Source: a virus. From it: a stretch of 64,000 nucleotides of DNA. This document shows, one piece after another, positions 1 to 59,185 of this stretch (positions within the stretch are counted from its first letter, which is position 1; the number at the start of each line of letters is the position of its first letter). The notes beneath the pieces were generated by a model that saw only the letters and a program-made list of their open reading frames with translations, had not been told where the DNA came from and did not search any database. The position numbers were made by a program, and so were the translations under genes. The stretch is from IMG/VR virus record IMGVR_UViG_3300008108_000033, positions 16,754-80,753 of that record. One strand, written 5' to 3'.

Positions 1-3000
1 ATAAACGGAGTTAAGGCTTTTTATAAAGGTGTAGAAAAAATACGCAACAGTGCCGAGCAGGCATTTTTTGGGTTTGATGAAAAAGCAAACCTTATGTCGA
101 AAACTTTTGGTGATTTATTTATAGCAGAGTCGCAATTCAATTTGAAAATAAAAGAGACTGCTTTTGAAGTTGAAGGTATTACTGGCGACTTAATCGATAT
201 GCAAAAAGAGTATACTAATGTTGGCAAAAGTGTAGAAGAAACCGGATTTAATAGAACAAAATACTTGAAAGAATATACGGAAAACTTCCAAAATGGAATA
301 CGAGACGCAAAGCAACTTCAAGTTTTAACTAAGCAAACTTTATCAACTGAAAGACAACTAGGGCTTGAGGCTGGCAGCTTGGCGGCCGACTTTAGAGCCA
401 TGGCAATGTCGGCCAAACTGAATAATGCACAAACTGGCGCTATTGGAAGAGGAATGGTTGAAGTTGCAAGGAATACCGGGCTTACTTCTAAAAGTATGCA
501 AGAGGCATACAACTTCAGCAAGCCTTTTGTAGAAAATCTTAAAAAAGCAGCAACTTACAGCAGCAGTTCTGCAACGAATATATTAGAAATAGCGGCTAAC
601 GCAAAAAAACTTGGAGTAGAAGAATCTATAACTCCGCTTTTAAATGCCGCCACTAGTTCAGTAGACTTAATCACAAAAAGCAGCAATGAAACCAAGGCTT
701 TTCTATATAATGCAGCTGGCGCTGTAGGTAAAATACAGCAATTGCAACTGGGCATACTAACAAGAAGCAAAAAAGGCATTAGAGAATTAGCTACTGGGAT
801 GGAGAAAGTGCTCCAAGGATTCGGAGTGCGCTCTATGGAGGAAATCGAAAACCTGCCTGATGAAGTTAAGTTTAGACTAAACTTGCAACTAAAGGGCGCG
901 TTCGGAATGGAATTAGGGGAAGTTACAAGAACTATAGAAGCATTCAAGGAGGCTGGCAAGGGACTTTCAACCAGACTAGATGAACTAAACAATAAAAGAA
1001 ACAAAGCTATTACCCTTGAACAAAAATTAGCAATAGAAGAAGAAGAGAGAAGACTTAAGACTTCCGGCACACTGGCTGTTCTTACGGGACTAAGTGAGGC
1101 CACCAAAGGTGCTAAAGACATGGATAAAGCGTTTAGCAACTTTACTCGAAGGCTGCCGGAATTTCAGGAAGATATCAAGGCTTTGGGCGGAGAAATTACT
1201 GACTCTCGGGGTGCGGCAAAGTTCTCTATTGAGGCAGCTGTAAAATCTCTTAATGATGGTCTTACTAAAATAGGAGAAAAGCCGCTTGAATTAAGCCAAC
1301 TAGATATAGAAAAAGCCTTGAATGATAAAGACTCGTTCGCTGCTTTGATGGATGTATTGAATACCGGGCAAAACAAATTGGCCATAGCCCAGAAAGCACA
1401 AACCGATCCGGCGCTAAAAACGTCTTTGGAATTGGAAAAATTAAATGATAATTTGAGAAATGATGTAACAGCTCCGCTTTTAAATGTTCTAAAAGAACAA
1501 CTTGGCATGCAGGGTTTTATGGAAGCTTCTCTTGCCTTCATAGCAGCGGAGATGACTTTTGGTCTCGCTGGTTTAATTGCTTCCAAAATGACTCCACTAG
1601 ATGATTTGTCGAAAGCTATATTGGGTTTTAGTCCTAAAGATTGGCTTAAAGGAATTTTTTATGGCAAAGATGACAAGTCAAAAACAAAAAGTAAAAATTC
1701 TACTAGCGGCACACCCGAAATAAAATGTCCAGAAATGAATCTTGATTGGAAGAGTCTTGGAGGATTTCTTAAAAACGCCGCAATAGGAATCATAGGAATA
1801 ACAGCATTTGTTGGAATGCTGGCTGCGGCTTTGGTAGCGCTTGGATACATAGCTAAGGGAGTTTCTAAAGCAGGCATAGATCCAATAGAAGTGGCCAAGC
1901 AAGTATCTGGCATTATTTTGGCTGGCGTAATTATTCTCACTGAAGCCGGCATAGCCGGTGTGCTTTTGAAGAAAGCCATGGACAAATATGGCAAAGCCAT
2001 AATGTCGCTGTGGTCTGTGGACACTCTTAAATTTGTTGGAATACTGACTTTAATGGCAGTTACCCTCACAGCTCTTTCGGCGGGATTGCTGTATGTTGGC
2101 AAAGCTATTGCAGAATCTTCAGGCATGTCTGCGCAAGACGCTATAGAAACCGGAATCAGGATTGGTGCAATTATAACTGCTGGCACAATTATTTTGGGCG
2201 TCGTTGGCGCAGCAACTTTCGGCCTTGTCAAGGTCATACCGCCATTTGTTGCAGCTGTTAAGGCTTTAAGTTCAGTAGGTTGGCTCGGCGCAGGAATTGT
2301 TGCCGGTGCTTTAGTGGCGCTCCCAATCATAGCCGCCGGACTACTATATCTGTCAATTAAGCTGCTTCAATTTTGCGATACAGTGCTTAAATCCAATCCA
2401 ATAGATACAGCGAGTTTGCAAGAGACCGCTAAAACTGTAGCATTTTTGATGGGCGCTTTTGCAAGTATAGCCGCATCACTTGCTGTGGCCGCTGCATCGG
2501 TTATTGGAGTTGCGGCATTGTTAAAATACGTGCAAAAATTCAAAGTAACTATGACCGACGTTAATAAGGCCGGCTTGTTGATGGGAACTATAGCTCTTGG
2601 AATTGGCGGTTTGTTTGCAAGTTTAGCCGGCAGCATTGCAATAATTGCGGCAATGGATTTGGGGGGCAAAGAAGGTGACTTTGCAAAAGCCGAAAAGAAT
2701 TTAGAAATAATGGGCGGCGTTCTTAAACAGCTTGCGCCAGCATTTTTCGTAATTTTAGGAATTACTGCGGCCTTGACTGCTCTGCAAGTGATGCAGCAAA
2801 AAGTATCCGACGAGACTAAAAAAGTAGACTTAATGGATATAACAAAAAATGTTGGTATTGCAGTTGCATTCATGGAAGCAATACTGTTGGCGCTGCCTCC
2901 GCTTATTTACGCAGTAGTAGAAGTTGCGAAAAAAACCGGAGGTCTAATAGGAGACCCAAAGAAATTTACAAAAGATATGGAAAAATTCCATATTATGATG

Positions 3001-6000
3001 CAGGAATTTTATAAGGCATCATTAATGCTTTTGCCAATAGCGGCTGTGGCAGCGGCAATTGGATTTGCCTTAGAAAAAGCACAAATGAGTCTTTCTAGCG
3101 CTGCTAAAACTCTAGGCAAAGGAGCTTTGGTAGCAGGTCTTCTTATGATAATAGGACTAGCTTTAACCCACATAGCGGCAACAGTGACGAGACTTGTGGG
3201 ATGGATGACCGAGTACGAAATCTTCACTCCGGAGGGCTCGAAAGTATTCGAGGCTCAATTAAAGGCATTTAGTAGCAACATCGGAAGTATAGCTTGGAAT
3301 ATAGCCGCCGCTGGCATCAAGGCTGGGGCCTCATTTGGATCCTTTGTGATAGGCGCGGCAGGATTCGCACTCTTTGGCGCAGGATTTTTATTAGTAGCTA
3401 AGCCGCTGCAAAGCGCTGTTCGTATCATGATGAGACTTACCAATATGTTTTCTATGCTATCTTTAGAAGAGACCAAGGCTTTGCCAATAAAAATTGCCGA
3501 ATTGAAAAACACAATAACTGCAGTAAAAGACGCATTCTACTCTCTGCGAAAATTTTCATTCGATAAGAAAAAAATAGATGAGGCTCTCAATAGATTGCAG
3601 GAAGTAGTATTGCCCTTATCTACCATGGCATCTATAATATCGGACATAAACATAGCGATTTATCAGGCAACAAACACTGCTGCTGCAGCCGCCGGGGCTG
3701 AAGCCGGCAAAGTTATGCTTGATACTATGAAGCAAATAGGAAATTTAATTAAGGAAATAAGCACATCGGCATTCCCATCAAAATCCGAGTTTCAAAAAGT
3801 TATAAAAGACATGGACGGAATTGGCGGATTGATGAAAAAATTTATGGCCTCCACTAAAAAAATAGTTGAGGCACCCATGAAAGAAAAATTAACTAAGGGA
3901 ATGTTAAAGAAAGCGGCCAGCACATACACAGATATTTCGTTAGCCATGTCAAAATTTGCCTCAGTAGTTCACGATTATACTAAGTCAGTGGAAAGCTTGC
4001 AAAAAATAAACGAAAATAAATCTGCGATGGATAAGGTTACCAAAAATGACAACGTAGAAAAACAAGTTGGAGACATGTTGTCATTTTCCAGAAGGCTAAT
4101 AGAAACTGCGGCTAAGGAAGCAGATGAATTTGACGCTGGAAAACAAAATAATGCAATAGCGGTTATACAAAATGCTTCTATGGTACTAAAAGCATTTGTT
4201 ACTGCCATCGAAGGGTTCCAGAAAACTTTGGAGAGCGCAGAAAAAGTTGCGACGTCGTATGGCAACGGATTCGCAACACGCGCAAACAAGATCAAGGAAG
4301 CTGGACGTGCTGCGGACGGCGAAACTGATGAGTTCATAATAGTAATGACAGATATTGCCGGCCAAATGAATAAAATTTTTAACATGCTAGAGAAGTCAAT
4401 AGGATCGAATAATAATCTAAAGGCAAGCAATGTAAACGCTCTCACCGATAAACTTAATCTTTTGGGAATGGCAGTAGAAACATTTGTGCAAGGTTTAGAT
4501 AATTTTGGCGCTACTCTGCAGTCTTCATTTCAAGATACTAGGTGGTTTTTCAATTTCTTCGGACAACAAGGCGTAGGATCTTGGCTTGCACAAAATGCAG
4601 GTGATATTACTCACGGAATTCAAAATACATTTCAAGCCTTAGATGGCATGTTTTATCATTTCACCGACTTAATGTCACGAACTAAATGGGAAAAACAAGT
4701 AAAAAACTTTAAGGAATACTCGGATAACTTCAAAAAGATGACCGACGCTGTAATTAATATGGGGTCTTCATTTTCACAACTGTCAAACGCGATGAAGAAT
4801 CATTTTGCTGTTTTGATACCAGAAAGAGGGCGAGGCGGCAAATACGATAATACTAAATTCGAAAAATATTACAATGATTTAGGAAACATGATAACCAATG
4901 TGGGCAAAGTAATTGACCAAATGGTAAATAAATTAGATGAAAATATGAAATATGATGATGCTGTGTTGGATAAAATTTCCAAAAAGACAACGGCAGTAGA
5001 GCCATTTATTAAAACACTTTTGACTATTTCTGAGTCTGTGGCTAAAATGGCGGCTTTCATGAGTCCAGACCTTCCTAGCGAACAAGAGTTTGAAGCCTCT
5101 GGCAAAAAAATTGCAGGCGCTCTCAAAGGTCTTCTTTCATCTGCAAACGTGATGGCCCAAACAGTTGAGGATGTCGATGTTGTGGCAGACGAAGCCGCCC
5201 TTGGAAAATTGACCACTGTAAGTAAGTTTTTAGATCCACTTCTTTCATTTATAAAAACATTTGCCGAAAAGTCAGATTTGGTTACTAGGGCAAACAAAGA
5301 AGCCGGAATTGTTCCTCCTACTGATAAAATTCGTGAAAATGCCCCTAAACTTGGAGAGGCAATAGGCTCTATCATGGGGCTATATAAAGTTGTCATGGAC
5401 GCAACTGGTTCCATGCCTTCAGATAGCAAAACCGAAGAAGTTTCTAAAAAGCTTGATTCTATAGTTTCTGTTATCAATACAGTAATCACAGTTATCGATA
5501 AACTTAAATTGGCATTTGAAAAATTAGATGACGAGTCTGCAGATGCTGGCGAAATAGCAGGAAAAAAAGACAAAGTGGCGTCTTTGTCAGAAGCAATAAA
5601 AGGCATGTTAGGAAAAGGTGGCGACAACCCATTGATGGATGTGTTCAAGTACATCAAAGAGGGTTTGGTCAAGCCCATGCTGAGAATGAATTTAGATGCA
5701 GACGACATTCAAGAAGCAGCTACGATGTTTGAAGGATTAGGCAAAATAGCAGTTTCGGTTTCCTCGGCAATAACAAGTTTGGGCACTGCCTTTTCCGGTG
5801 TAACTATGGGAAGAGTATCACATTTGGATGTGGCCAGAAAAGTTTTATCTAAGCATAAAGACGAAATTATGGATGTTTTGCTGGCGGTAGCCGACTTTGT
5901 GGTGCCAATAACCAAGCTTGAGATTGACGGCGATGATGCTGAAGACGCTGCGAAAGTATTAACTGGTGCCAGCCAAATGCTTCAGGTGCTGGGTGGGAAA

Positions 6001-7338
6001 CAAAGCGGCCCCGAAGCAGATTTCGGTTTAATAGGATATATGAGCACAAGACTTTCTCAGTTGGTTGAACAGACAGCCAAAGCGGATGGAAAAGTAGACA
6101 TGTCTATGGCCAATAAAGCCAGTGCTGCAATCAATGATTTCTCCAAAGTCTGGAAAACCATGCTGCCTGCTTTAGCAACCCTAATTCAGGGGACTGTCGA
6201 ATTTGGCGGAAGCGGAGACGACGCAGAAGATGCTGCAAAAATTATCGTAGGCACTGAGCAAATTATAAAATCTTTGCCACAGTTACTTGAAAATTTACAG
6301 AATAATTTGCCTACTTTGGTCAAGCAGGCTGAGGGTATTGCCGCTCAAGCTGGATTAGGGCAAAAATTAGAGGGCAAAGCCCCTGCTTTCGCCACTCTGC
6401 TAACCCAAGTATTCGACTTCTTGCGCGAAGCAGTTATAGACCCAGTAGGCAACTTGGAAATGAACTATGACATTGAAGATGTCGCAGATATCATGAATGC
6501 AGCTCTTAATTTATCAGCAAGTTTGGGCGGGCCATTGGGCGGAATCAGCCAAAATTTAGCGCAAGTTTGTGAAAAAATGAAGGAGCAAAAGAATCTAGAT
6601 TGCTTAGAACCGCTCAAAAAATTCTTCTTGGATTTAGGAAACATAGCTGGGGTTGTTGCCAACCCGCAACTCATGGCTGCTTTGGGAAGTGATGAAACCG
6701 TGGAAGCCATAGAAAGGCTACCGGACTTTCTTGAGGCTGTTAAAGGTATATTTTCAGTTGATTTATCTACTATAGATCCTGCCACACTCGGAAATGTAGG
6801 AAATGTATTCTCATCGCTTGACAAATTTGCCCAAGACCTGCTAAAAGGCAATTTAGATTCTGTTGCCAAGAATCTGTCAGACGCAGCACGACAAGTTAGT
6901 GGAGTTGATGAAGCGCTTAGAAGTTTGGTAGCCAGCTTCTCTGGCATCGCAGGAAGTATGTCGGAACTTGGCAAAATTGGCGGCGCAGGTATAAATGTTA
7001 ACGCAAACGTTAATCAAGCATCAACAGTTCCCGGCGATCCAACTCAGCAAGCAGCCAAGGCGGTAGATTTAAATCTCGGTGCAGCCGCAATGGAAGCAGC
7101 CAATCAGGCTGAAATAACAAAACTTGTGGCAAGCAATGAAGCTATAGCGGCAAACACAGCTCAAATGGTGGTTTTGCTCGCCAACATGGGACAATCAGAA
7201 GGTGGTGGGGGCAAAAAGAAGAGCACCGGACTTGGAACCACTGATCCCATGTCATATTTGGCTAAAAAGACATTGAGAGATAGCAGTGCAACCAACTCTG
7301 CAAACTTCGCTGGCGGAGCAAGCATTCCGAAATTTTAA
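1..7338 (+). CDS. Tail tape measure protein (5'-truncated by window edge)
   Basis: Frame is open from base 1 through the ATG at 94 (>2440 aa). Ala/Gly/Lys-rich helical composition, central hydrophobic segments and C-terminal DDAEDAAK-type repeats; lies directly upstream of the baseplate genes. Confidence 0.85.
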   Translation: MNGVKAFYKGVEKIRNSAEQAFFGFDEKANLMSKTFGDLFIAESQFNLKIKETAFEVEGITGDLIDMQKEYTNVGKSVEETGFNRTKYLKEYTENFQNGIRDAKQLQVLTKQTLSTERQLGLEAGSLAADFRAMAMSAKLNNAQTGAIGRGMVEVARNTGLTSKSMQEAYNFSKPFVENLKKAATYSSSSATNILEIAANAKKLGVEESITPLLNAATSSVDLITKSSNETKAFLYNAAGAVGKIQQLQLGILTRSKKGIRELATGMEKVLQGFGVRSMEEIENLPDEVKFRLNLQLKGAFGMELGEVTRTIEAFKEAGKGLSTRLDELNNKRNKAITLEQKLAIEEEERRLKTSGTLAVLTGLSEATKGAKDMDKAFSNFTRRLPEFQEDIKALGGEITDSRGAAKFSIEAAVKSLNDGLTKIGEKPLELSQLDIEKALNDKDSFAALMDVLNTGQNKLAIAQKAQTDPALKTSLELEKLNDNLRNDVTAPLLNVLKEQLGMQGFMEASLAFIAAEMTFGLAGLIASKMTPLDDLSKAILGFSPKDWLKGIFYGKDDKSKTKSKNSTSGTPEIKCPEMNLDWKSLGGFLKNAAIGIIGITAFVGMLAAALVALGYIAKGVSKAGIDPIEVAKQVSGIILAGVIILTEAGIAGVLLKKAMDKYGKAIMSLWSVDTLKFVGILTLMAVTLTALSAGLLYVGKAIAESSGMSAQDAIETGIRIGAIITAGTIILGVVGAATFGLVKVIPPFVAAVKALSSVGWLGAGIVAGALVALPIIAAGLLYLSIKLLQFCDTVLKSNPIDTASLQETAKTVAFLMGAFASIAASLAVAAASVIGVAALLKYVQKFKVTMTDVNKAGLLMGTIALGIGGLFASLAGSIAIIAAMDLGGKEGDFAKAEKNLEIMGGVLKQLAPAFFVILGITAALTALQVMQQKVSDETKKVDLMDITKNVGIAVAFMEAILLALPPLIYAVVEVAKKTGGLIGDPKKFTKDMEKFHIMMQEFYKASLMLLPIAAVAAAIGFALEKAQMSLSSAAKTLGKGALVAGLLMIIGLALTHIAATVTRLVGWMTEYEIFTPEGSKVFEAQLKAFSSNIGSIAWNIAAAGIKAGASFGSFVIGAAGFALFGAGFLLVAKPLQSAVRIMMRLTNMFSMLSLEETKALPIKIAELKNTITAVKDAFYSLRKFSFDKKKIDEALNRLQEVVLPLSTMASIISDINIAIYQATNTAAAAAGAEAGKVMLDTMKQIGNLIKEISTSAFPSKSEFQKVIKDMDGIGGLMKKFMASTKKIVEAPMKEKLTKGMLKKAASTYTDISLAMSKFASVVHDYTKSVESLQKINENKSAMDKVTKNDNVEKQVGDMLSFSRRLIETAAKEADEFDAGKQNNAIAVIQNASMVLKAFVTAIEGFQKTLESAEKVATSYGNGFATRANKIKEAGRAADGETDEFIIVMTDIAGQMNKIFNMLEKSIGSNNNLKASNVNALTDKLNLLGMAVETFVQGLDNFGATLQSSFQDTRWFFNFFGQQGVGSWLAQNAGDITHGIQNTFQALDGMFYHFTDLMSRTKWEKQVKNFKEYSDNFKKMTDAVINMGSSFSQLSNAMKNHFAVLIPERGRGGKYDNTKFEKYYNDLGNMITNVGKVIDQMVNKLDENMKYDDAVLDKISKKTTAVEPFIKTLLTISESVAKMAAFMSPDLPSEQEFEASGKKIAGALKGLLSSANVMAQTVEDVDVVADEAALGKLTTVSKFLDPLLSFIKTFAEKSDLVTRANKEAGIVPPTDKIRENAPKLGEAIGSIMGLYKVVMDATGSMPSDSKTEEVSKKLDSIVSVINTVITVIDKLKLAFEKLDDESADAGEIAGKKDKVASLSEAIKGMLGKGGDNPLMDVFKYIKEGLVKPMLRMNLDADDIQEAATMFEGLGKIAVSVSSAITSLGTAFSGVTMGRVSHLDVARKVLSKHKDEIMDVLLAVADFVVPITKLEIDGDDAEDAAKVLTGASQMLQVLGGKQSGPEADFGLIGYMSTRLSQLVEQTAKADGKVDMSMANKASAAINDFSKVWKTMLPALATLIQGTVEFGGSGDDAEDAAKIIVGTEQIIKSLPQLLENLQNNLPTLVKQAEGIAAQAGLGQKLEGKAPAFATLLTQVFDFLREAVIDPVGNLEMNYDIEDVADIMNAALNLSASLGGPLGGISQNLAQVCEKMKEQKNLDCLEPLKKFFLDLGNIAGVVANPQLMAALGSDETVEAIERLPDFLEAVKGIFSVDLSTIDPATLGNVGNVFSSLDKFAQDLLKGNLDSVAKNLSDAARQVSGVDEALRSLVASFSGIAGSMSELGKIGGAGINVNANVNQASTVPGDPTQQAAKAVDLNLGAAAMEAANQAEITKLVASNEAIAANTAQMVVLLANMGQSEGGGGKKKSTGLGTTDPMSYLAKKTLRDSSATNSANFAGGASIPKF

Positions 7339-33564: not shown

Positions 33565-33804
33565 ATGGCCATACTTATTGATCCTAACAATGTGAAAGTG
33601 ATTAGTCAAAATGGACAAGTCACATTAGCCCTCCAGATTGAATTAAATATCAATCTGAATGGAAATATCACTGCGCAGGAACAATCTTCTAGCTCTAACA
33701 ATTTTAAAGCTTCTTCTTCGCCAATCAAAAATGCGGCAGATGAAGAAGCTGCTTGGCTAGTACCAGATTTTAACTCCAAAGAAAAGGTAAAATTTGGGAA
33801 ATGA
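33565..33804 (+). CDS. Small protein, first gene of the actin operon
   Basis: 79 aa with beta-strand-like N-terminus, Ser-rich linker and aromatic C-terminal tail; preceded by the ACTGTAATA motif. Confidence 0.55.
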   Translation: MAILIDPNNVKVISQNGQVTLALQIELNINLNGNITAQEQSSSSNNFKASSSPIKNAADEEAAWLVPDFNSKEKVKFGK

Positions 33805-33851
33805 GAGGATCATACGGTAATAACAGTACAAAAAAAGAGAGAGGCAAAACT

Positions 33852-34865
33852 ATGGCAGTTTCAGTTGACGTAGGTACTTATACTTTAGTCTCTTGCAAAA
33901 GAGATGCAGATAAGAACTTTGTATTCAAAAAGGAAATCAACGCCTTTCTTGAATTACCATTAGAGAATAGATTTGTTTTCAATATGATGAAACAGGCCGG
34001 TGTGCCACTAATTGAACGTGAAAAACTAGCATACGCTCTCGGTGAAGCTGCAGTGAACATGGCGTATACTCTTCCTACTCTAGAGCTCAAAAGGCCCATG
34101 AAGGATGGTTGCGTCAATCCCAAAGAAAAAGACGCTTTTCAAATTATGTCTATCATGCTTCACTCTTTGATAGACCCAATTTCAAGAGATGGCGAAACAC
34201 TTTACTACTGCGTACCGGCTAATGCAATAAATCAGGAAACTGACGCGGATTATCATCAAAAGGTTGTTGAATCCATTTTCCGAAGCTATCAATCCGACGA
34301 AGGATATAGGGTCAATCCCAAACCAATTAATGAAGCTTTGGCTTTGGTATATGCCGAGTTGCAGAACAAGATGTTCACTGGAGTTGGTATTAGTTGCGGG
34401 GGCGGCATGGTAAACGTTTGCTACGCTATGTATGGCAACCCAATTTTTCAATTCGCAATAGTGAATAGCGGAGATTGGATCGATAAACAGGCAGCCAAAG
34501 CTACCGGCGAATCACCAACTTTTATAAACAAAGAAAAAATGAAAGTGGATTTAACAAAAGATCCTAAAACTTTAGTCGAAAGAGCAATCATTACGCAATA
34601 CCGCCTAATGATAGAAAAAACAATTACCGGAATTAGAGACGGACTTGCGTCCGCAAAACAGTCCGTTAAATCAGAACACCCAGTTGACTTTGTGGTCGCT
34701 GGTGGAACAAGCATGGCCACTGGGTTCGTTGAGATTTTCACTGAAACTTTGAAACAGGCCAACTTGAGCATCCCAGTGGGAGACGTAATCAGACCTGCAG
34801 AGCCGCTTTATAGCGTTGCAAAAGGGTGTCTGATTGCGGCTGAAGCAGCGGACGCAGGAACGTAA
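33852..34865 (+). CDS. Actin-family ATPase, volactin-like
   Basis: Phosphate-1 VDVGT, PINEALAL connect motif, phosphate-2 GISCGGGMVNV, adenosine VVAGGTS and C-terminal EPLYSVAKG. GAGG RBS at 33841. Confidence 0.88.
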   Translation: MAVSVDVGTYTLVSCKRDADKNFVFKKEINAFLELPLENRFVFNMMKQAGVPLIEREKLAYALGEAAVNMAYTLPTLELKRPMKDGCVNPKEKDAFQIMSIMLHSLIDPISRDGETLYYCVPANAINQETDADYHQKVVESIFRSYQSDEGYRVNPKPINEALALVYAELQNKMFTGVGISCGGGMVNVCYAMYGNPIFQFAIVNSGDWIDKQAAKATGESPTFINKEKMKVDLTKDPKTLVERAIITQYRLMIEKTITGIRDGLASAKQSVKSEHPVDFVVAGGTSMATGFVEIFTETLKQANLSIPVGDVIRPAEPLYSVAKGCLIAAEAADAGT

Positions 34866-37651: not shown

Positions 37652-38419
37652 ATGCACATCGAACATCTTAGCGTTAGTCGCAGCGGTTGCTTTGACCAAT
37701 GCAAACAACAGTACAAATTCAGATATCACCTAAAAGTGGTTCCGAATCGACCTGAGCAATTATATTTTACTTACGGCAAGCTTGTCCATACAGCTGCTGA
37801 AATTTTTGTCGAGTCAAAGGGCCAAAAGCCAATACGAGAAATTGTAAGTGACTTGCTGCAAGGGAGAATTGAATTTGACGGCAGCGATAATGTCTGCCGC
37901 TTAGACGAATCATATTTCAAAAAACTTTATGAACATATTGGCTTTATCGAAAGATTTACGCAAAAAGTCGGATTTGATGGAGAGATAGAACATGAAATCA
38001 AGTACGATCTGGACCCACCTAACAACAAAATATTTTTAGGATACATCGATAGACTTATAGTAAGAGATAATCAGGCAATAATTATTGATTACAAAACATC
38101 AAAAAATAATAAATGGAGAAAAAATAAAGTTTCAATAAAAAAAGATTTACAACTAAACGCCTACGCGCTGTATGTACATGAAAAATTCAACATCGCCCCA
38201 GAAAATATTCAAGCTGCTTTGGTTTACTTGGAAGAACCACAGGTAGTAAGCACAAATTTCAATAAACAAGGGTTGCAATTGACGAAACAAATACTTAAAA
38301 ATAGTTATTATGCAATCGAGGAGTTCGATGCTTCCAAAGTCAAAGGAAACGTCGGATATCATTGCAAGAGGTGCGACTATTCAGATCAGTGCCCGTTTTT
38401 TGATGACAGCATGTTTTAG
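37652..38419 (+). CDS. PD-(D/E)XK nuclease (RecB/Cas4-like, probable Fe-S cluster)
   Basis: LSVSR..CFDQC, GKLVH, GYIDRL..IIDYKTS, QLNAYA and C-terminal CKRCDYSDQC. Confidence 0.88.
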   Translation: MHIEHLSVSRSGCFDQCKQQYKFRYHLKVVPNRPEQLYFTYGKLVHTAAEIFVESKGQKPIREIVSDLLQGRIEFDGSDNVCRLDESYFKKLYEHIGFIERFTQKVGFDGEIEHEIKYDLDPPNNKIFLGYIDRLIVRDNQAIIIDYKTSKNNKWRKNKVSIKKDLQLNAYALYVHEKFNIAPENIQAALVYLEEPQVVSTNFNKQGLQLTKQILKNSYYAIEEFDASKVKGNVGYHCKRCDYSDQCPFFDDSMF

Positions 38420-43343: not shown

Positions 43344-43808
43344 TTATCTATCAAAGTTTCTTAAAATCATCTTATAGTTATCCACGTCCTCGCGGCTTTT
43401 TTTGATTTGCTCCTCGTAGAATACTTCCATGTACCTTCTGTCCGGCTCGTCTAATAAAGGTACATGCGTGACAATCCTATCAGCATAATTAGCAACTACT
43501 TCTTGCTCCATGGCCAAGGCATACTGCAGCAATTCCTTGACATCATATGAGCATACATGAGGCAAATCTTCTATAAAACTTAAAAATTCTTTAAGATCCG
43601 CATCTAAACCCAAAAGCGCATTCTGGAACTCTAGAACATGCTTCATTTCACTTGAAGCTTCTTTTTCAAATAGTTCTTTATATTCTTCTCGGTGCGGGCC
43701 AGAAACTAAAGAGGCAGCCGCCAAATAAAAATGCATGTGCTTGCGTTCATTTCGCAAATCCTGCTGCATGATGTTAACAAATTGTGCATAATTTTCATTT
43801 TTCAGCAT
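43344..43808 (-). CDS. Ferritin-like (bacterioferritin/rubrerythrin-type) di-iron protein
   Basis: Four-helix pattern DLRNE...EASSEMKH...AMEQEVVANY...EEQIKKSRED. Confidence 0.75.
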   Translation of the reverse strand: MLKNENYAQFVNIMQQDLRNERKHMHFYLAAASLVSGPHREEYKELFEKEASSEMKHVLEFQNALLGLDADLKEFLSFIEDLPHVCSYDVKELLQYALAMEQEVVANYADRIVTHVPLLDEPDRRYMEVFYEEQIKKSREDVDNYKMILRNFDR

Positions 43809-47310: not shown

Positions 47311-49845
47311 ATGGCAACCCCAATATGGGCTGACTTTTTCAAAACTTGGGACTTTGCATTTGCAAGAGATCCAGTTTCCCGTTCTATAGACCCGAAAGAT
47401 TTGGTCGGTGCTGGTATAGCACAGCCAGATGCTATTCCAACACTAAACCCAGATGGAAGCTTCTGGAGCAATAGCGACTCACGATTAATTCGCCTACGCG
47501 AAACTAATGATTTCATCGACCTATCAACTGTTAGTAATAGGCAGTCAAGATACAAGGAATACGAAAGACTAAGAACAATTCCAGAAATTGAATGCGCCCT
47601 CAACGTATTTTCAGATGAAGCATGCTTGGCCGGAAAAACTTTGGTATCAACGCCTTTCGGCATGATTCCAATCGAAAAATTGGCTACAACACATAAAAAT
47701 GATAAGTTTTTGGTTTACTGCTATGATTTCAGCAAAAAAGATTTCGCTCTAGGATGGGCACATAGCCCGAGAAAAACAAAAACGGCAGAAACAGTTACAG
47801 TAATACTTGACGCAGGCAAAGATATTCAATGCACACCAGACCATAGAATTTTGCTGAGAGACGGCACTTGGAAATATGCAGGCGACCTAAAAGAAGGCGA
47901 TCTCTTGATGCCTTTTTATCGCATGCCAGTAAATCAATTTTGCAACAATCTGCCAAGCAAACAATACCCCAGAATATTCACCTTTAGCCATGGCTGGATA
48001 CACGAAAGACATTTTGTAGACAGCTGGAGACTTGGAAAAGTAGACAAGAAAATGGAACGCGTATCCTATTACGCCAGACTTCTTGCCTCAGACCTAAACA
48101 TGAACCAAATCGCACAGCAAGCCGAATGCGATTGGAAGACTGTAAAAAATAGACTACGCGCAGAAGGACATACAGTAGATGAACTAAGATGGCTAGGAAA
48201 CCACAAGGATTGCAGACGAGTATTGGGCGTAGTTAAAAGCGAAGTTGTTGATGTTTATGACCTTACAGTCGAAGAACACCATAACTTTGCTACTGATTCC
48301 ACAATAGTTCATAACTGCCAAAAAGATAGCGATGGAAATGTCGTTCAAATACACTGCGCTGATGAAGATGTGAAAATGGAACTTGAATTCCTTTTCCTGC
48401 ATCGAAATATGATTAATTTAAATCGCAGAGTGTGGTCCGATTTCAAGAGCCTGCTCCTGTACGGCGATTTGTTCTATGAATTAGTTATAAATCTAGATGA
48501 CCCAAAAGAAGGCGTAATGAAAATTACGCGCCTCCCCCCAGAATCAATGTACAGAATTGAAACAACAAAAGGCAGAGTTGTAGAATTCCAGCAGTCCAAA
48601 GAAGGACCAGACTATCAAAGCTTGACCAAAGCTCCTGTTGTACATGCAACAGACCAAGAAATTGCAATGGCAACGGCTATACGATTTAGCCCAGAACAAG
48701 TAGTACACGCACGCCTAGGTGACGATAGAAGAACATTTTACCCTTACGGCGTAAGCATAGTAGAGCCAGCTAGAGGCCCCGCAAATCAATTAAGATTAAT
48801 GGAAGACTCCATGTTGGTTTATAGGCTTGCAAGAAGCCCAGAACGCAGAGTTTTCTATATCGACGTCGGACAATTGCCTCCATTTAAGGCCGAAGCATTT
48901 GTTGAAAGACTCAAAGACCAATTCCGCAAAAAGAAAGTTAGCCACCACCAAGGACAGGCTGGCGGATATAATCCAAATGCCGTTGACGAAAAATACCACG
49001 CGCCTGCGGTAGATGAAGACTTTTGGCTGCCTATCCGACCAAATTCCAACACCAAAATCGAAACTCTTCCCGGTGCTCAAAACCTAGGCGAAATTGATGA
49101 TGCAATCTATTTCCGCAATAGATTATTCACCGCTTTGCAGTTCCCTAAGAATTACATGAATACGGAAGACCCACAGCAAACCAAGGTAACCTTGAGCAGC
49201 CAAGATGTAAGAGTGGCAAGACTAATTGAGAGATTTCAGGCTCCTTATGAAGATATTCTTTGGGAAATTGCAGATAGACACTTGAAACTAAGAGGCTTCC
49301 CAACGGAAACATACGAAGACCTTAAAATAAAAATGACTCAGCCATCTGAATGGCGCGAACTAAGCCGAGCAGAAGTTGTAAATGCCAGAATTCAAAATGC
49401 AACTTCTCTCAAGGGCGCAAATATCCTTTCCGACTACGATATTCTCACCGGCTGGATGAAATACAGCGAAGAACAAGCCAAGATACTTACTGCGCGCATG
49501 AAGATGCAAAAAATCGAAGACGCAAAGCTTCAAGTGCTTTCGCAGAATCCAGCACTTCTTGGAGTTGGCATTCCCGGCACTGGCGAAGAAGACCAAAACA
49601 AAATTGGTACTACGCCCGAAGGCCCGAATAATGAACTTTCGCCAGAAGGATTGCCGGCACCAGAATCCCAACCTCCAGAACAAGGCGAAGAGGCATCGGC
49701 AAAAGAACAACCAGCAGCAGATGTACAGTCAAGCACCGTACTCAAACAGCCAAACGAAGAAGATTTGGTCAAGTACGATATTGAAATCCAGAATTATGCA
49801 AGCGAAGAAGATATCGAACCAGTAGATTACAGCGATTACGAATAA
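47311..49845 (+). CDS. gp20: Portal protein, T4 gp20-like, containing an intein
   Basis: PEIECALNVFSDEA, PYGVSIVEPAR..ANQLRLMEDSMLVYRLARSPERRVFYIDVG and EDFWLP...IETLPGAQNLG motifs. Confidence 0.95.
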   Translation: MATPIWADFFKTWDFAFARDPVSRSIDPKDLVGAGIAQPDAIPTLNPDGSFWSNSDSRLIRLRETNDFIDLSTVSNRQSRYKEYERLRTIPEIECALNVFSDEACLAGKTLVSTPFGMIPIEKLATTHKNDKFLVYCYDFSKKDFALGWAHSPRKTKTAETVTVILDAGKDIQCTPDHRILLRDGTWKYAGDLKEGDLLMPFYRMPVNQFCNNLPSKQYPRIFTFSHGWIHERHFVDSWRLGKVDKKMERVSYYARLLASDLNMNQIAQQAECDWKTVKNRLRAEGHTVDELRWLGNHKDCRRVLGVVKSEVVDVYDLTVEEHHNFATDSTIVHNCQKDSDGNVVQIHCADEDVKMELEFLFLHRNMINLNRRVWSDFKSLLLYGDLFYELVINLDDPKEGVMKITRLPPESMYRIETTKGRVVEFQQSKEGPDYQSLTKAPVVHATDQEIAMATAIRFSPEQVVHARLGDDRRTFYPYGVSIVEPARGPANQLRLMEDSMLVYRLARSPERRVFYIDVGQLPPFKAEAFVERLKDQFRKKKVSHHQGQAGGYNPNAVDEKYHAPAVDEDFWLPIRPNSNTKIETLPGAQNLGEIDDAIYFRNRLFTALQFPKNYMNTEDPQQTKVTLSSQDVRVARLIERFQAPYEDILWEIADRHLKLRGFPTETYEDLKIKMTQPSEWRELSRAEVVNARIQNATSLKGANILSDYDILTGWMKYSEEQAKILTARMKMQKIEDAKLQVLSQNPALLGVGIPGTGEEDQNKIGTTPEGPNNELSPEGLPAPESQPPEQGEEASAKEQPAADVQSSTVLKQPNEEDLVKYDIEIQNYASEEDIEPVDYSDYE
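47623..48315 (+). mobile_element. Intein (231 aa) in the portal gene, homing endonuclease degenerate
   Basis: Block A CLAGKTLV, block B TPDH, block F VYDLTVEEHHNF, block G IVHN followed by a +1 Cys. Confidence 0.93.
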
Positions 49846-55420: not shown

Positions 55421-56236
55421 ATGCCAAATTTAAGATTAAGACGGTATCATTGGCACAATTCGCCAAAAGCAGGAACAGTGTATCTAGATTCTTCTTATGA
55501 GTTAAAAGCCGCCATGATTCTTGATGAAGATGCGAATGTTTCAAGTTATTCTGTTCATGAAATTTTTTATACTCCTGCTGGGAAAAAGAGATTTACGGAT
55601 TTCATAGTAAAATTTGTTAATGGAGAAATTTGTTTGATTGAAATAAAGCCACTTCGTCGCGTGCCACAGTATGTGGATCAAATCGAAGATAACAAAAATT
55701 TTGCTGAAACCAATTCATGGAAATTCAAAGTTTGGACTGAGTCAGATCTAGGATTTTCAAACGAGTCTGACGCAACTGCATGGGCTGATTTTTACTTGTC
55801 CCAAATTGATGGCAAAGATTATTCTCAAATAAGAAAATTAAGAGCTACACAAAGAGTCAAAAAGCATTATCATGAAAAATTAAAGCAAGACATTTTGCAA
55901 TTTCATTGTAAATATTGCAACTGCAATCATGAAATGCTGAGGCTTACATATGATAGAGATGTTTTAAACAATGATGATTGGGTTTGTATACATGAAAATG
56001 GCAGACGTACAGGGCGGTTGCCAAAGGATCATTTGAAGAAGCTTAATCCTTATGAGTCCGAAGGAAAGAAAGAGTGTAGAAGTTGCAGGGAGATAAAAGA
56101 AATTAACGGTTACTTTACATACAAGGATAAATCTAGAGGAACTTACATGCTCGATTGTAATTCATGCAGAGCAGCAGCAGCGACAGCAAAATATCAGGCT
56201 AAAAAAGCAAAGTCAAAATCAGAAACACTACTATAA
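55421..56236 (+). CDS. TnsA-like PD-(D/E)XK endonuclease with C-terminal Zn-binding motifs (putative free-standing homing endonuclease)
   Basis: DSSYE...FTDFIV...IEIKP catalytic core; CKYC, CRSC and CNSC pairs; own CCTATAATA motif upstream. Confidence 0.7.
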   Translation: MPNLRLRRYHWHNSPKAGTVYLDSSYELKAAMILDEDANVSSYSVHEIFYTPAGKKRFTDFIVKFVNGEICLIEIKPLRRVPQYVDQIEDNKNFAETNSWKFKVWTESDLGFSNESDATAWADFYLSQIDGKDYSQIRKLRATQRVKKHYHEKLKQDILQFHCKYCNCNHEMLRLTYDRDVLNNDDWVCIHENGRRTGRLPKDHLKKLNPYESEGKKECRSCREIKEINGYFTYKDKSRGTYMLDCNSCRAAAATAKYQAKKAKSKSETLL

Positions 56237-56283
56237 TACTTTATATGCATTAATTGCATACTTTATGCTATAAAATCATATTT

Positions 56284-56355
56284 GCGGGTGTGGCATATCG
56301 GCTGTGCGTTAGGTTTCCAACCTAATTTAGGTGGGTTCGACTCCCTCCATCCGCT
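56284..56355 (+). tRNA. trnG: tRNA-Gly (TCC)
   Basis: Cloverleaf with acceptor GCGGGTG/CATCCGC, anticodon arm TTAGG-TTTCCAA-CCTAA, T-loop TTCGACT and discriminator T. CCA is not encoded. Confidence 0.92.
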
Positions 56356-56836
56356 ATTTTCTTCTATTAGCTGAGTTATAGAGATTAGTTGCGACGACAT
56401 CTTTGAATTTATTTTGTAATTGTTTTAATTTTCCGATGGCGTATTGATCGGCAACGCGTTCGATGCGTCTGATTACTTTAACGGCATCTTTAGTAGAAAT
56501 TTCGTTTTTGAAGTATGCCCACATGTTATGAAATCCGTGTTTTTGGTATTGGTATTGGTGGGCAATTTCGTGGAAAATAACGTAGAGTAGGAATGAGAGG
56601 TCGTAGTCGAATAGGGAGGGGTTTAGAATTACTCTATCTTTTAGTGAGGCGGCTAGAGCTGGGCCGAAGCTTTCAATTTTGATTTCTGGTGTGCCGCTAT
56701 TTACGATGAAGTCTTTGATATGTTGGATAAGAGAATCTTCAACTTCTGGGTGTGAGCTTTTTAAGTGCTGGATGAGGGTATCCAGACCGGGAATTTTTTT
56801 TGAATCTTCTGTGAGAAACCAATATTTGAACTTCAT
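56354..56836 (-). CDS. Small HEXXH zinc metallopeptidase-like protein with capsid-targeting-like N-terminus
   Basis: Start MKFKYWFLTE; YVIFHEIAHQYQ plus downstream ERVADQYA. Confidence 0.7.
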   Translation of the reverse strand: MKFKYWFLTEDSKKIPGLDTLIQHLKSSHPEVEDSLIQHIKDFIVNSGTPEIKIESFGPALAASLKDRVILNPSLFDYDLSFLLYVIFHEIAHQYQYQKHGFHNMWAYFKNEISTKDAVKVIRRIERVADQYAIGKLKQLQNKFKDVVATNLYNSANRRK

Positions 56837-56876
56837 GTAGTATTTATTGTTTGGTATAATTATTTGGAGGTGCATT

Positions 56877-57338
56877 ATGGCGACATTGAATGATTTGTTA
56901 GTTGATTTGAAGAGTTCTAATTCTGATTGTGTGGTAGGCATTTACACTCCTAGTGGATCGAGTGTGCCGTCGCATTTTCATATAACTGAGATTGGCAGGA
57001 CTACGAAGAAGTTTGTTGATTGTGGAGGGGTTGAGCGGGAGTCTAGTGATACAACGTTTCAGGTTTGGGTTGCTGATGACACTGAACACAGGCTGACGGT
57101 GGGTAAGCTTTTGCAGATTATTGGTGCTGGTATTAATTTGGTTAACGCGGATGACCAATTGGTATTTGAGTATGACGGTGGTCATACAATAGGATTGTAT
57201 GGAGTTGCATTAATTCAGCGTTTAGAAAGTGTATTGAATATATTTTTAGTACAGAAGCGTGCAAACTGTTTGGCCCCTGACAAGTGTGGTATTAAGCCAA
57301 AAGCTGTGACATGTTGTGGCAGTAAGGGATGTTGTTAA
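56877..57338 (+). CDS. DUF6428-like protein with Cys-rich tail
   Basis: HFHITEIG...FVDCGG...QVWVA.D..HRL...KL motif; C-terminal CCGSKGCC; GGAGG RBS. Confidence 0.75.
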   Translation: MATLNDLLVDLKSSNSDCVVGIYTPSGSSVPSHFHITEIGRTTKKFVDCGGVERESSDTTFQVWVADDTEHRLTVGKLLQIIGAGINLVNADDQLVFEYDGGHTIGLYGVALIQRLESVLNIFLVQKRANCLAPDKCGIKPKAVTCCGSKGCC

Positions 57339-57350
57339 CTATATTAAGAT

Positions 57351-57447
57351 GGCTGGTAGGTATATGGTGGTCGTTTTAGCTCTTTCCTGACTCGGATGCC
57401 TTTTAGCCAAGTGGTGAAGATTAAGAGCGTCAGCCCTTGGCACAGCC
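57351..57447. ncRNA. Candidate structured RNA (unassigned)
   Basis: Several complementary segments in a 97-nt intergenic stretch; see findings. Confidence 0.35.
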
Positions 57448-58274
57448 TATTCAATTTCGTGAAGAAGTTTATTGGTATTTTCTATACCGCGCATGAACAT
57501 GAAGAAGTAGAAAATGTTATAAGTGACGCCGTACAGTTTATCTACGTACAGAAGGGTTGATGTAATAGCTCCGACAGTTGGGTTGGTGTAAACCAATAGG
57601 AGCATAATTGCAACGTGCATTGTGATTGATAGTGAGTCGTTGAAGAAGAAATTAGCAGCGTCGAGGTTAGATTTTTTTACGTAGTTTGAGCTTAGATTAA
57701 TTAGGTGTGGTTTATATTCTAGATTTTCCATTAGTGAGTGGTTAATGCTTTCTTTATCATTTTGAATATTGAGGTCAACTTTTTGTGTTTTGAAGCTATA
57801 GAATTTGTTTACAAAAATCATAAGAATGAATAAAATTGTGGCGATGATACCGATTTTGTGGTCGGTGATATAAAGCATGGTTAGTGCGGTGCCTGCGCCA
57901 ATGAAAGAGTTTATAATTTGTGGCAGGCTGTATTCAAAAAAGTCTGAGTAATATCCTACGAGTTGGTATCGTGCTGCTATTTTAGCAGGGATTATATTTT
58001 TATCTCTGAGAATTTGTACAGCTTTTATCGCTTTATCGCAGAATATTTTCATGAATACGATGGTATCGATTCTTTTAAGGCCGTATCCTAGAAGTAGAGC
58101 GGCGATTTCTGCGATTAGAAGTAATATTAGACCGAAGTTATCTTTTATTAGTAAACCATCTATAGCTTTACCTAAAAGGTAAGGCATGATTGAAAATAGG
58201 CCGTACTGTATGATAAGTAGGGAGTAGATGAGGGAAATCTGTAGTTTATTTTCCTTCAGTATTTCCTTGATCAT
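57447..58274 (-). CDS. ABC transporter six-transmembrane domain protein (no ATPase partner in window)
   Basis: PYLLGKAIDGLL...RIDT..F...DFFE.SLP pattern with ~6 transmembrane helices. Confidence 0.7.
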   Translation of the reverse strand: MIKEILKENKLQISLIYSLLIIQYGLFSIMPYLLGKAIDGLLIKDNFGLILLLIAEIAALLLGYGLKRIDTIVFMKIFCDKAIKAVQILRDKNIIPAKIAARYQLVGYYSDFFEYSLPQIINSFIGAGTALTMLYITDHKIGIIATILFILMIFVNKFYSFKTQKVDLNIQNDKESINHSLMENLEYKPHLINLSSNYVKKSNLDAANFFFNDSLSITMHVAIMLLLVYTNPTVGAITSTLLYVDKLYGVTYNIFYFFMFMRGIENTNKLLHEIE

Positions 58275-58425
58275 TTTGTTCGCTCATGAATGGGCAGGAT
58301 GATTCTGTGTAATCCGCGTTATCTTGGAAGCAACTTGGATTTGGAGCATCTGTCATTGTGAAGACGCTTACGATTCCGTATAGGATAATAGCAAACATAG
58401 CTACGAGAACGATGATATGCAACAT
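58246..58425 (-). CDS. Small membrane protein (59 aa)
   Basis: Translated by hand: MLHIIVLVAMFAIILYGIVSVFTM...; TAATG coupling. Below the ORF-track cutoff. Confidence 0.55.
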   Translation of the reverse strand: MLHIIVLVAMFAIILYGIVSVFTMTDAPNPSCFQDNADYTESSCPFMSEQNDQGNTEGK

Positions 58426-58568
58426 TATTTTTTTTCTCCGTCGATATCTTCATTATAGTCAACTGGAGAGGGGTCGATAGCGGTGAAAACTGCTGCCATT
58501 AAGGTAACTAGTCCGAAAATAAGAATCATGAATAAGCAGAAGTTTAGGATGCCCATAAGAATATCCAT
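58425..58568 (-). CDS. Small membrane protein (47 aa)
   Basis: Translated by hand: MDILMGILNFCLFMILIFGLVTLMAAVF...; abuts both neighbours. Confidence 0.55.
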   Translation of the reverse strand: MDILMGILNFCLFMILIFGLVTLMAAVFTAIDPSPVDYNEDIDGEKK

Positions 58569-58856
58569 TTAGTTCCATCCGCCTTCGAGAGGTTGTCCTT
58601 TGGTGAGCGAGCGAATGACTTCATGGAGTCTTTCGATTTCATCCAAGCATTTAATTATATCTATTTTTGCGTGTGCGATGAATGTAGCGTTGTTTTCTTG
58701 ATTTTGATTTTGGTTGATTGTGGCTAGTGGGTGGTAGTGTTCAATTTCGCCGCAGTAAACGGTCCAGAGGCCATTTTTAAGGTCGGTTACCCAAGGTCCG
58801 TTGGTAGCTTTTTTGCAACGGAGTTCAATTTCTTTGAGTTCTGTTGGTGTTAGCAT
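58569..58856 (-). CDS. Ead/Ea22-like phage protein
   Basis: KKATNGPW...NATFIAHA...LDEIERL motif. Confidence 0.7.
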   Translation of the reverse strand: MLTPTELKEIELRCKKATNGPWVTDLKNGLWTVYCGEIEHYHPLATINQNQNQENNATFIAHAKIDIIKCLDEIERLHEVIRSLTKGQPLEGGWN

Positions 58857-59185
58857 ACATTAAAAGAGTAATTGTTGAATTCTTTTTTTATAATGCCGAT
58901 TACTTCGTGGAGGGCCATATTTTTAACAGTGCCGTCGCCTAGATTTTTATGTTCTTGTGTTGTAACGTGGTCTGCGTAGTTTTTTATGATTTGCAAGCAA
59001 TGTTGAATTGTTTCTTGTTCAATAATATTTTTGTTGCATTTTTTAATTTGGTAATTAATTTCTTCGTGTTCTCTGAGTAAATTTTGTAGTAATTTAATTG
59101 GGAGAACGATTGATGGGCTCATTACGATATTTTCGTGAGTATTGAGTCTTTTTAGTATTTCTTCTGCTGGTTTAATTTCGTCCAT
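58850..59185 (-). CDS. Hypothetical protein
   Basis: 111-aa ORF in a run of coupled small genes. Confidence 0.55.
   Translation of the reverse strand: MDEIKPAEEILKRLNTHENIVMSPSIVLPIKLLQNLLREHEEINYQIKKCNKNIIEQETIQHCLQIIKNYADHVTTQEHKNLGDGTVKNMALHEVIGIIKKEFNNYSFNVC

Follow-up and report, generated by a model that had tools for sequence, protein, structure and literature searches.

The stretch of DNA studied here (the window, 64,000 nucleotides) is part of an 80.7-kb virus record that is estimated to be 16% complete and that belongs to a huge uncultured T4-like lake phage. A Pfam scan of 50 ORFs in the window agrees in part with this assignment: a baseplate gp25, a T4-type large terminase (Terminase_6N/6C), a T4 portal with an intein and a prohead protease are recognised, and 36 of the 50 ORFs have no Pfam family. 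Where a run of + strand genes comes to its end and a - strand block begins, two convergent genes, one of the DUF6428 family and one of the ABC_membrane_3 family, leave a gap of 108 nt between the stop codon of the + strand gene (57336-57338) and that of the - strand gene (57447-57449). This gap holds the element that is the subject of this work (Table 1), which begins 12 nt after the DUF6428 stop codon and has base 57447 in common with the ABC stop codon. A DUF6428 gene and a stand-alone ABC membrane domain, with no ATPase gene adjoining, thus occur in one phage. The literature searched on DUF6428 (PMC13707694) places the bacterial genes next to arsenic-resistance operons and deals with arsenic clusters, with no RNA among its subjects.

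Upstream of the element there is a tRNA-Gly gene, and a tRNA was found upstream of it in all four of the relatives checked as well (L014, L041, L042 and L043). Between the major capsid gene and this tRNA sits an ORF (55421-56236, +) whose C-terminal half is Cys-rich and which gives a weak TnsA-like endonuclease N-terminal match (E 7.8e-4, below the Pfam cut-off); by analogy with segB in the T4 tRNA cluster, it may be homing-endonuclease-like. Elsewhere in the window, the portal gene (47311-49842, +; Portal_T4, E 3.6e-73) carries an intein splicing domain in its N-terminal part (E 4.7e-15), and an ORF at 33801-34862 (+) gives a full-length Pfam match (E 1.3e-65, 321/321 profile positions) to Volactin, an archaeal actin-like protein. 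A Cas4-like PD-(D/E)XK nuclease (37652-38416, +; E 1.2e-27) and a ferritin-like protein (43347-43808, -; E 7.5e-13) are encoded among structural genes, and an ORF of 2414 aa (94-7335, +) has no Pfam family at E up to 1e-4.

The preliminary description had placed the motif ACTATATTA (57338-57346) directly ahead of the element. It occurs once in the window, and a copy also turns up in 44 of 100 shuffles; it is therefore not a recurrent motif. The related CTATATTAA is kept in five of six DUF6428-linked sequences, and a similar AT-rich hexamer precedes a divergent copy of the element that was found in sequencing runs X12 and X16. The TATATT of the spacer might serve as a promoter, as part of a promoter-like site (GTGGCA-18-TATATT, 9/12) of a kind that is no commoner than in shuffles. 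A recurrent promoter motif was rejected, with 21 matches to CTATATTAA at one mismatch where 26.7 are expected.

Table 1. Positions in the window of the element, its predicted parts and the neighbouring genes
Feature	Position	Strand	Remarks
tRNA-Gly(UCC)	56284..56355	+	Rfam and ARAGORN; ~1 kb upstream of the element
Upstream gene, DUF6428 family	56877..57338	+	Pfam PF20001, E 2.6e-34
AT-rich spacer, 12 nt, after the DUF6428 stop	57339..57350	+	-10-like TATATT 57341-57346, 5 nt before P1
Conserved 97-nt element, candidate RNA	57351..57447	+	Bounded by P1 helix; CM R1 match, 123 bits
P1 5' strand, GGCUG	57351..57355	+	Predicted to pair with 57443-57447; invariant in 5/5 versions
P2 5' strand	57358..57373	+	Outer helix 57358-57363; inner helix 57365, 57367, 57369-57373
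L2, 14-nt pyrimidine-rich apical loop, UUUUAGCUCUUUCC	57374..57387	+	0/14 positions vary in five versions
GCUCUU in L2	57379..57384	+	Candidate kissing partner of AAGAGC 57423-57428 in L3; six Watson-Crick pairs
P2 3' strand	57388..57401	+	Predicted to pair with P2 5' strand
P2-P3 junction strand, UUUA	57402..57405	+	Last base G in L043
P3 5' strand	57406..57415	+	57406-57411, bulged U 57412, 57413-57415
L3, 17-nt purine-rich apical region, GAAGAUUAAGAGCGUCA	57416..57432	+	1/17 positions varies
P3 3' strand	57433..57441	+	Predicted to pair with P3 5' strand
P1 3' strand, CAGCC	57443..57447	+	Predicted to pair with 57351-57355
Convergent gene, ABC_membrane_3, membrane part only	57447..58274	-	Pfam PF13748, E 4.9e-16

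Conservation and occurrence of the element

Protein-guided searches found the DUF6428 and ABC gene pair in other virus contigs and in metagenome contigs, and the element lies at the same place in all five of its distinct versions. Version 1 is that of the window and is identical in L016 and L018; version 2, of L002, is the same in L003 and L017; versions 3, 4 and 5 are those of L005, L014 and L043. Among four versions the element is 91-97% identical (88-93 of 97 positions, or 91-96%, in the pairs of window, L002 and L005; 93-97% between L014 and the others), whereas in the same pairs identity at the third codon positions of the ABC gene is no more than 46-62%. The whole ABC gene reaches 72-83%, and the whole DUF6428 gene 66-78% in the pairs without L014, which was left out for indels. 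Along 6.5 kb of three-way synteny, 60-nt segments with at least 0.87 identity in all three pairs occur only in the major capsid gene and at 57314-57374, and over a path of the ABC gene tree that amounts to 0.88 changes per site, from the window to L011, the element differs at 6 of 97 positions. The edges of this conservation are sharp (GGCTGG at the start and CAGCC at the end), and silent sites vary up to both of the stop codons that flank the element.

CM R1 finds one copy in each element-bearing record and none in the 181-kb and 48-kb records behind L004 and L009, and L004, L019/L020 and L021, in which one gene of the pair has a different neighbour, lack the element too. In L009 there is neither element nor spacer, and the stop codons of DUF6428 and ABC overlap within a single TTAA (L009:3780-3900); in L043 (940-1300) the order is TTAA, an insert of 110 nt (12-nt spacer, 97-nt element and 1 nt) and TTAA again. 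To judge by the sequences, the two arrangements could have arisen from each other by a deletion between 4-nt repeats or by an insertion that duplicated its target. The midpoint-rooted ABC gene tree places L009 inside the element-bearing clade (support 90/94 for protein and 80/83 for DNA), so that one loss explains the pattern better than several gains; and since so close a relative lacks it, the element is dispensable and its function would be an accessory one.

In runs X12 and X16 the divergent copy lies on DNA contigs (that of X12 is 2331 nt long) whose match to the window is confined to 57370-57437 and includes about nine differences. At its loose ends GGCTGGT is followed by GAATAT, where the window has AGGTAT, and CACAGCC stands at the far end, so that P1 is kept. 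The visible flanks differ from those of the window, and the element family may extend beyond the DUF6428/ABC locus. The contig with this copy has a higher depth than the window's own phage in the same runs.

The region is carried in the DNA runs of 16 studies, one of which is possibly the window's own source; no RNA run is among those that carry it. Scans of viral contigs for the DNA pattern of the element returned the same four contigs each time, and a metagenome scan added only copies identical to known versions. In the representative genomes of 185,579 prokaryote species no copy was found, save in one 2.5-kb phage-like contig; the scans of genome contigs gave 0 matches to a 22-mer, L048 and one chance match to a 20-mer, and six matches to a 19-mer, none with further similarity and one of them inside a 511-aa ORF. 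L048 is the same contig as L043 (2501 nt), it holds the block of tRNA, DUF6428, element and ABC, and it was binned with a Flavobacteriia MAG; this copy could be a mis-binned piece of phage or a weak hint of the host. GenBank phages have no match to 56800-58300, a 17-letter stretch of the element is absent from the searched literature, and the literature on noncoding RNA of T4-like, freshwater or huge phages does not treat the element among the matches listed.

The predicted three-way junction and its covariation

The preliminary description had drawn attention to a GC-richer segment with five pairings, and both the segment and the pairings are present in the letters. G+C is 0.50 at 57350-57449 against 0.33-0.43 in the adjoining bins, and the segment is the G+C-richest stretch nearby. 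GGCTG (57351-57355) pairs with CAGCC (57443-57447), AGGTAT (57358-57363) with ATGCCT (57396-57401) by way of one G-U, and GCCAAG (57406-57411) with CTTGGC (57436-57441); GCTCTT (57379-57384) with AAGAGC (57423-57428) and CTGAC (57387-57391) with GTCAG (57429-57433) are pairings that cross each other as well as the nested stems. In the single sequence these pairings are not above chance. Fold energy on the + strand is no better than that of shuffles (MFE -28.8 kcal/mol, where shuffles average -30.7; z +0.52), and the real sequence is equalled or surpassed by 136 of 200 shuffles; z is -0.31 for the - strand and -0.13 for the 97 nt alone, and in four of four versions, that is, the 97 nt and three relatives, the fold does not stand out from shuffles (z -0.96 to +0.63). 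There are two Watson-Crick runs of at least six where 0.56 are expected, a number that 9.6% of 1000 shuffles reach (p ~0.1), and once G-U is allowed the complementary runs show no excess over shuffles. It is the comparison with relatives that gives the signal.

The fold that emerges from this comparison is a three-way junction, in which the arms P2 and P3 spring from P1, a closing helix of 5 bp (P1, P2 and P3 at alignment columns 1-5/93-97, 8-23/38-51 and 56-65/83-91). P2 has about 13 pairs with small internal loops, P3 has nine pairs and one bulge, and the junction strands GU, UUUA and A are 2, 4 and 1 nt long. P1 never varies and so offers no covariation. In P2, 100% of the cells are paired, with one-sided changes from U-G to C-G at 57361/57398 and from G-U to A-U at 57369/57392 and a two-sided change from G-C to A-U at 57370/57391 in L043. 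In P3 the two-sided changes are C-G to U-A at 57407/57440 and G-C to A-U at 57414/57434, and a one-sided change leads from U-G to C-G at 57415/57433; pair 57408/57439 goes from C-G to G-U or U-G, or is lost altogether, both of its bases having been deleted together in L002 and L014. After re-alignment the only true exception to pairing is G-G at 57413/57435 in L005.

Two-sided changes affect four pairs of the nested stems (57370/57391, 57407/57440, 57408/57439 from C-G to G-U, and 57414/57434) against 0.9 +/- 0.8 in 500 shuffles, of which one reached four, in a set of five distinct but closely related versions whose structure comes from one of them and whose alignment was fitted to the model, which favours pair counts, and with a shuffle control that ignores the kinship of the versions. 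Before P3 was re-aligned, 98.2% of the cells of the junction fold paired, compared with 30-48% when the partners were slid; after it, the + strand has 132 of 133 cells paired and the - strand 110 of 133, pairing there being poorer because 22 G-U cells become A-C mismatches. All five one-sided pair changes stay standard by the gain or loss of a G-U, read on the + strand. The collection of homologues and the count of covarying pairs against shuffles support covariation of the nested stems, and the two strands differ in the direction foreseen from the G-U pairs.

The divergent copy adds to this. Opposite the altered outer P2 strand it has 57400 C>T and either 57401 T>C (X12) or 57402 T>C (X16), and, judged by eye, two or three outer P2 pairs appear to have been exchanged on both sides, which we take as partial evidence. 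As to the unpaired parts, 3 of 43 positions vary, against 15 of 54 paired ones (Fisher p 0.009), and by this count of variants the loops are under stronger constraint than the stems; the single variant within L3 is 57430 T>A in L002 and L003.

The two crossing pairings call for separate treatment. The one between CTGAC and GTCAG does not hold among the relatives: it has one broken cell (in L002 and L003) and no two-sided change, and it shares bases with the inner P2 helix, which has the compensated G-C to A-U. The one between GCTCTT and AAGAGC, which would join L2 to L3, is invariant in five of five versions; its 6-bp match is not significant, as 9.5% of loop shuffles reach 6 bp. A search of the window for targets of the loops gave no complement beyond the element, save one site with three mismatches that is within chance.

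Interpretation and comparison with known RNAs

We think it probable that 57351-57447 specifies a + strand structured RNA of about 97 nt, a new family that so far has been seen only in one clade of huge, uncultured, T4-like phages of fresh water. Its strand, ends and expression are what we infer from the comparison of sequences, and the label ncRNA is a purely comparative one. By the generic criteria for a conserved structured ncRNA, the sequences give conservation above neutral, compensatory changes and no coding potential.

Several other explanations have to be weighed against this reading. It is unlikely that the element works in cis at the 3' end of the DUF6428 mRNA, as a terminator or as a barrier to 3' exonucleases where the gene blocks converge. 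Its site exactly between convergent genes, at the end of the + strand gene run, would suit such a role, as would the U-rich sequence that follows P1 in all versions and in the divergent copy; however, a scan of 56000-59000 finds terminator-like sites only at 56288 and 57974, neither at the element, no G+C-rich hairpin is directly followed by a U run, and the L009 gene pair has no spacer at all. Furthermore, terminators and stabilisers need no invariant loops, yet the loops are the most conserved part. The preliminary description had envisaged, as an outcome that would speak against its proposal, a bidirectional terminator for the convergent genes and nothing else; the - strand folds poorly (110 of 133 cells), so the element is not bidirectional. 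The same description had offered an unannotated ncRNA or a conformational switch, and of these the conserved structured non-coding element is supported and the switch is not. An exchange between the three-way junction and a long rod with extensive L2-L3 pairing seems very unlikely, even though RNAalifold favours the rod, as does the MFE of L002 and of L014, and the rod also keeps 98.2% of cells paired and would make use of a pyrimidine-rich L2 and a purine-rich L3. The rod has 0 two-sided pairs and three broken cells, two of which come from changes in L043 for which the junction fold shows compensation, and any sequence can be expected to have alternative folds of similar energy, z being ~0 here. 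Natural variation, as read from the alignment, decides for the predicted junction over the rod.

Highly improbable is a feature of the DNA with no function as RNA, be it a protein-binding or recombination site, an attP-like copy of host sequence or the footprint of a mobile insertion. Presence/absence polymorphism, with TTAA at both borders in L043 and one TTAA in L009, is what such a feature might leave behind, and the X12/X16 copy has other flanking letters; but pairing is kept through G-U, which works only for + strand RNA, each record has one copy, and L009, nested among element-bearing lineages, points to loss and not to repeated insertion. A host-derived attP-like sequence was rejected on the prokaryote genome scans, as the representative genomes searched hold no host copy. 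That the element codes for protein, as a small ORF or as a read-through extension of the ABC gene, is hardly credible. The - strand frame past the ABC stop (57447-57341) is indeed open across the element in the window, L002 and L005, and a 13-codon + strand ORF starts at 57349; but the versions differ by 1 nt, and therefore any frame through the element shifts between versions, so that the window and L002, 93% identical in DNA, give unrelated peptides. In each of the three + frames a stop codon comes no later than codon 14 of the element, a 54-aa + strand ORF at 57396 has no Pfam match, and the substitutions obey the logic of base pairs, not that of codons. The open - strand frame looks like an effect of base composition and not like a read-through extension.

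If the element is the + strand RNA that we favour, it would act as a discrete folded particle, with the stems as a scaffold and the nearly invariant loops and junction as its working surface. Such an RNA might have its own start just before P1, at the -10-like TATATT, or it might be cut from the 3' end of the DUF6428 transcript, possibly a tRNA-DUF6428 transcript, and in every version and in the divergent copy U-rich sequence lies 3' of P1. L2 and L3 would be recognised by a protein or by some other partner, the pairing of GCUCUU with AAGAGC may lock the two arms side by side, and the short junction strands would let P1 stack on P3 with P2 alongside, in an architecture that we know from other junctions. 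A bolder proposal, which we hold to be distinctly unlikely, is a phage RNA of a new class, whose active parts are two invariant and complementary loops borne on a three-way junction, whether in forming multimers or in a compact ribozyme or sensor of a protein or ligand. Were this true, and were the loops to pair between molecules, it would be the first self-assembling RNA of the pRNA kind outside the phi29 group, and a pRNA-like RNA would be at work in a giant T4-type phage, adjoining its head-assembly genes.

Taken together, the sequences argue for a real, new and conserved structured element, most likely a new small phage RNA of narrow distribution. What is known of huge uncultured phages comes mostly from their proteins, and descriptions of their RNAs are few. 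In the present case, a short non-coding stretch has stayed as constant as the major capsid gene, in a place where the adjoining genes are near saturation at silent sites, and compensation in the stems would mark it as an RNA whose three-dimensional form has been selected and whose loops are sequence-specific. Neither Rfam nor GenBank phages nor the literature searched has a counterpart of it. At 97 nt it is small enough for direct biochemical and structural work, and a partner, if found, could reveal how a widespread group of lake phages manipulates its host or its own expression.

Known families of RNA gave no match to the element. With the 4227 models of Rfam 15, which include hammerhead, twister, pistol, hatchet, HDV-like, riboswitch, SRP and 6S models, the window has only the tRNA at 56284-56355 at gathering thresholds; at E up to 10, 57200-57600 has only snR76, with 14 bits against a gathering score of 55, and at E up to 5 four relatives have no match on the element. 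A tRNA or tmRNA is rejected, as ARAGORN finds only the tRNA-Gly at 56284-56355 and RF00005 has no match on the element, and so is a hammerhead, there being neither CUGANGA nor GAAA at the junction, a CUGA only inside the P2 helix and no Rfam match. The earlier statement that the element matches no recognisable tRNA, hammerhead, HDV, twister or pistol core therefore agrees with both scans.

Likeness to known systems is found more in architecture than in family membership. Intrinsic terminators and 3' stabiliser hairpins likewise lie between convergent genes and have U-rich sequence behind the closing helix; unlike these, the element would be a branched 97-nt fold with invariant loops, on the + strand only. 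With rnaC and rnaD, the small stable RNAs of T4 (species 1 and 2), it has in common a T4-type phage, the nearness of a same-strand tRNA and an endonuclease-like ORF upstream, where T4 has a homing-endonuclease gene, but the T arm, similar to that of a tRNA, and the strongly stable fold (z -4.6) of rnaC are both missing from the element. Homology to rnaC or rnaD was rejected: R1, run with filters off on the T4 tRNA region, gave a best score of 12.6 bits, elsewhere. The "tuning fork" aptamers of purine riboswitches and natural hammerheads are three-way junctions with a loop-loop contact, and the element is like them in its three predicted helices, its two arms that loops could tie together, its covarying stems and its conserved unpaired bases. 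The junction strands, only 2, 4 and 1 nt long, leave no room for a known ligand pocket or a hammerhead core, and, unlike the purine-riboswitch type, the element stands at the 3' ends of genes and not in a 5' leader, and has no Rfam match.

The closest phage parallel in outline would be the pRNA of phi29. To our knowledge, a T4-type packaging motor needs no RNA. Membership in the phi29-type pRNA family was rejected for want of an Rfam match and for the T4-type motor that stands in place of the phi29 type: unlike the phage of pRNA, the phage of the element has a T4-type large terminase (Terminase_6N/6C) and Portal_T4, the element matches no Rfam family, it is dispensable, as L009 indicates, and its loop pairing is a candidate only. 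In phi29, according to PMC4201828, the loop pairing of pRNA is intermolecular and builds multimers. The likeness would lie in a phage RNA of about 75-120 nt with a three-way junction and two mutually complementary loops. By analogy, then, the element would work most like the junction RNAs with loop-loop contacts, of which phi29 pRNA is the phage example.
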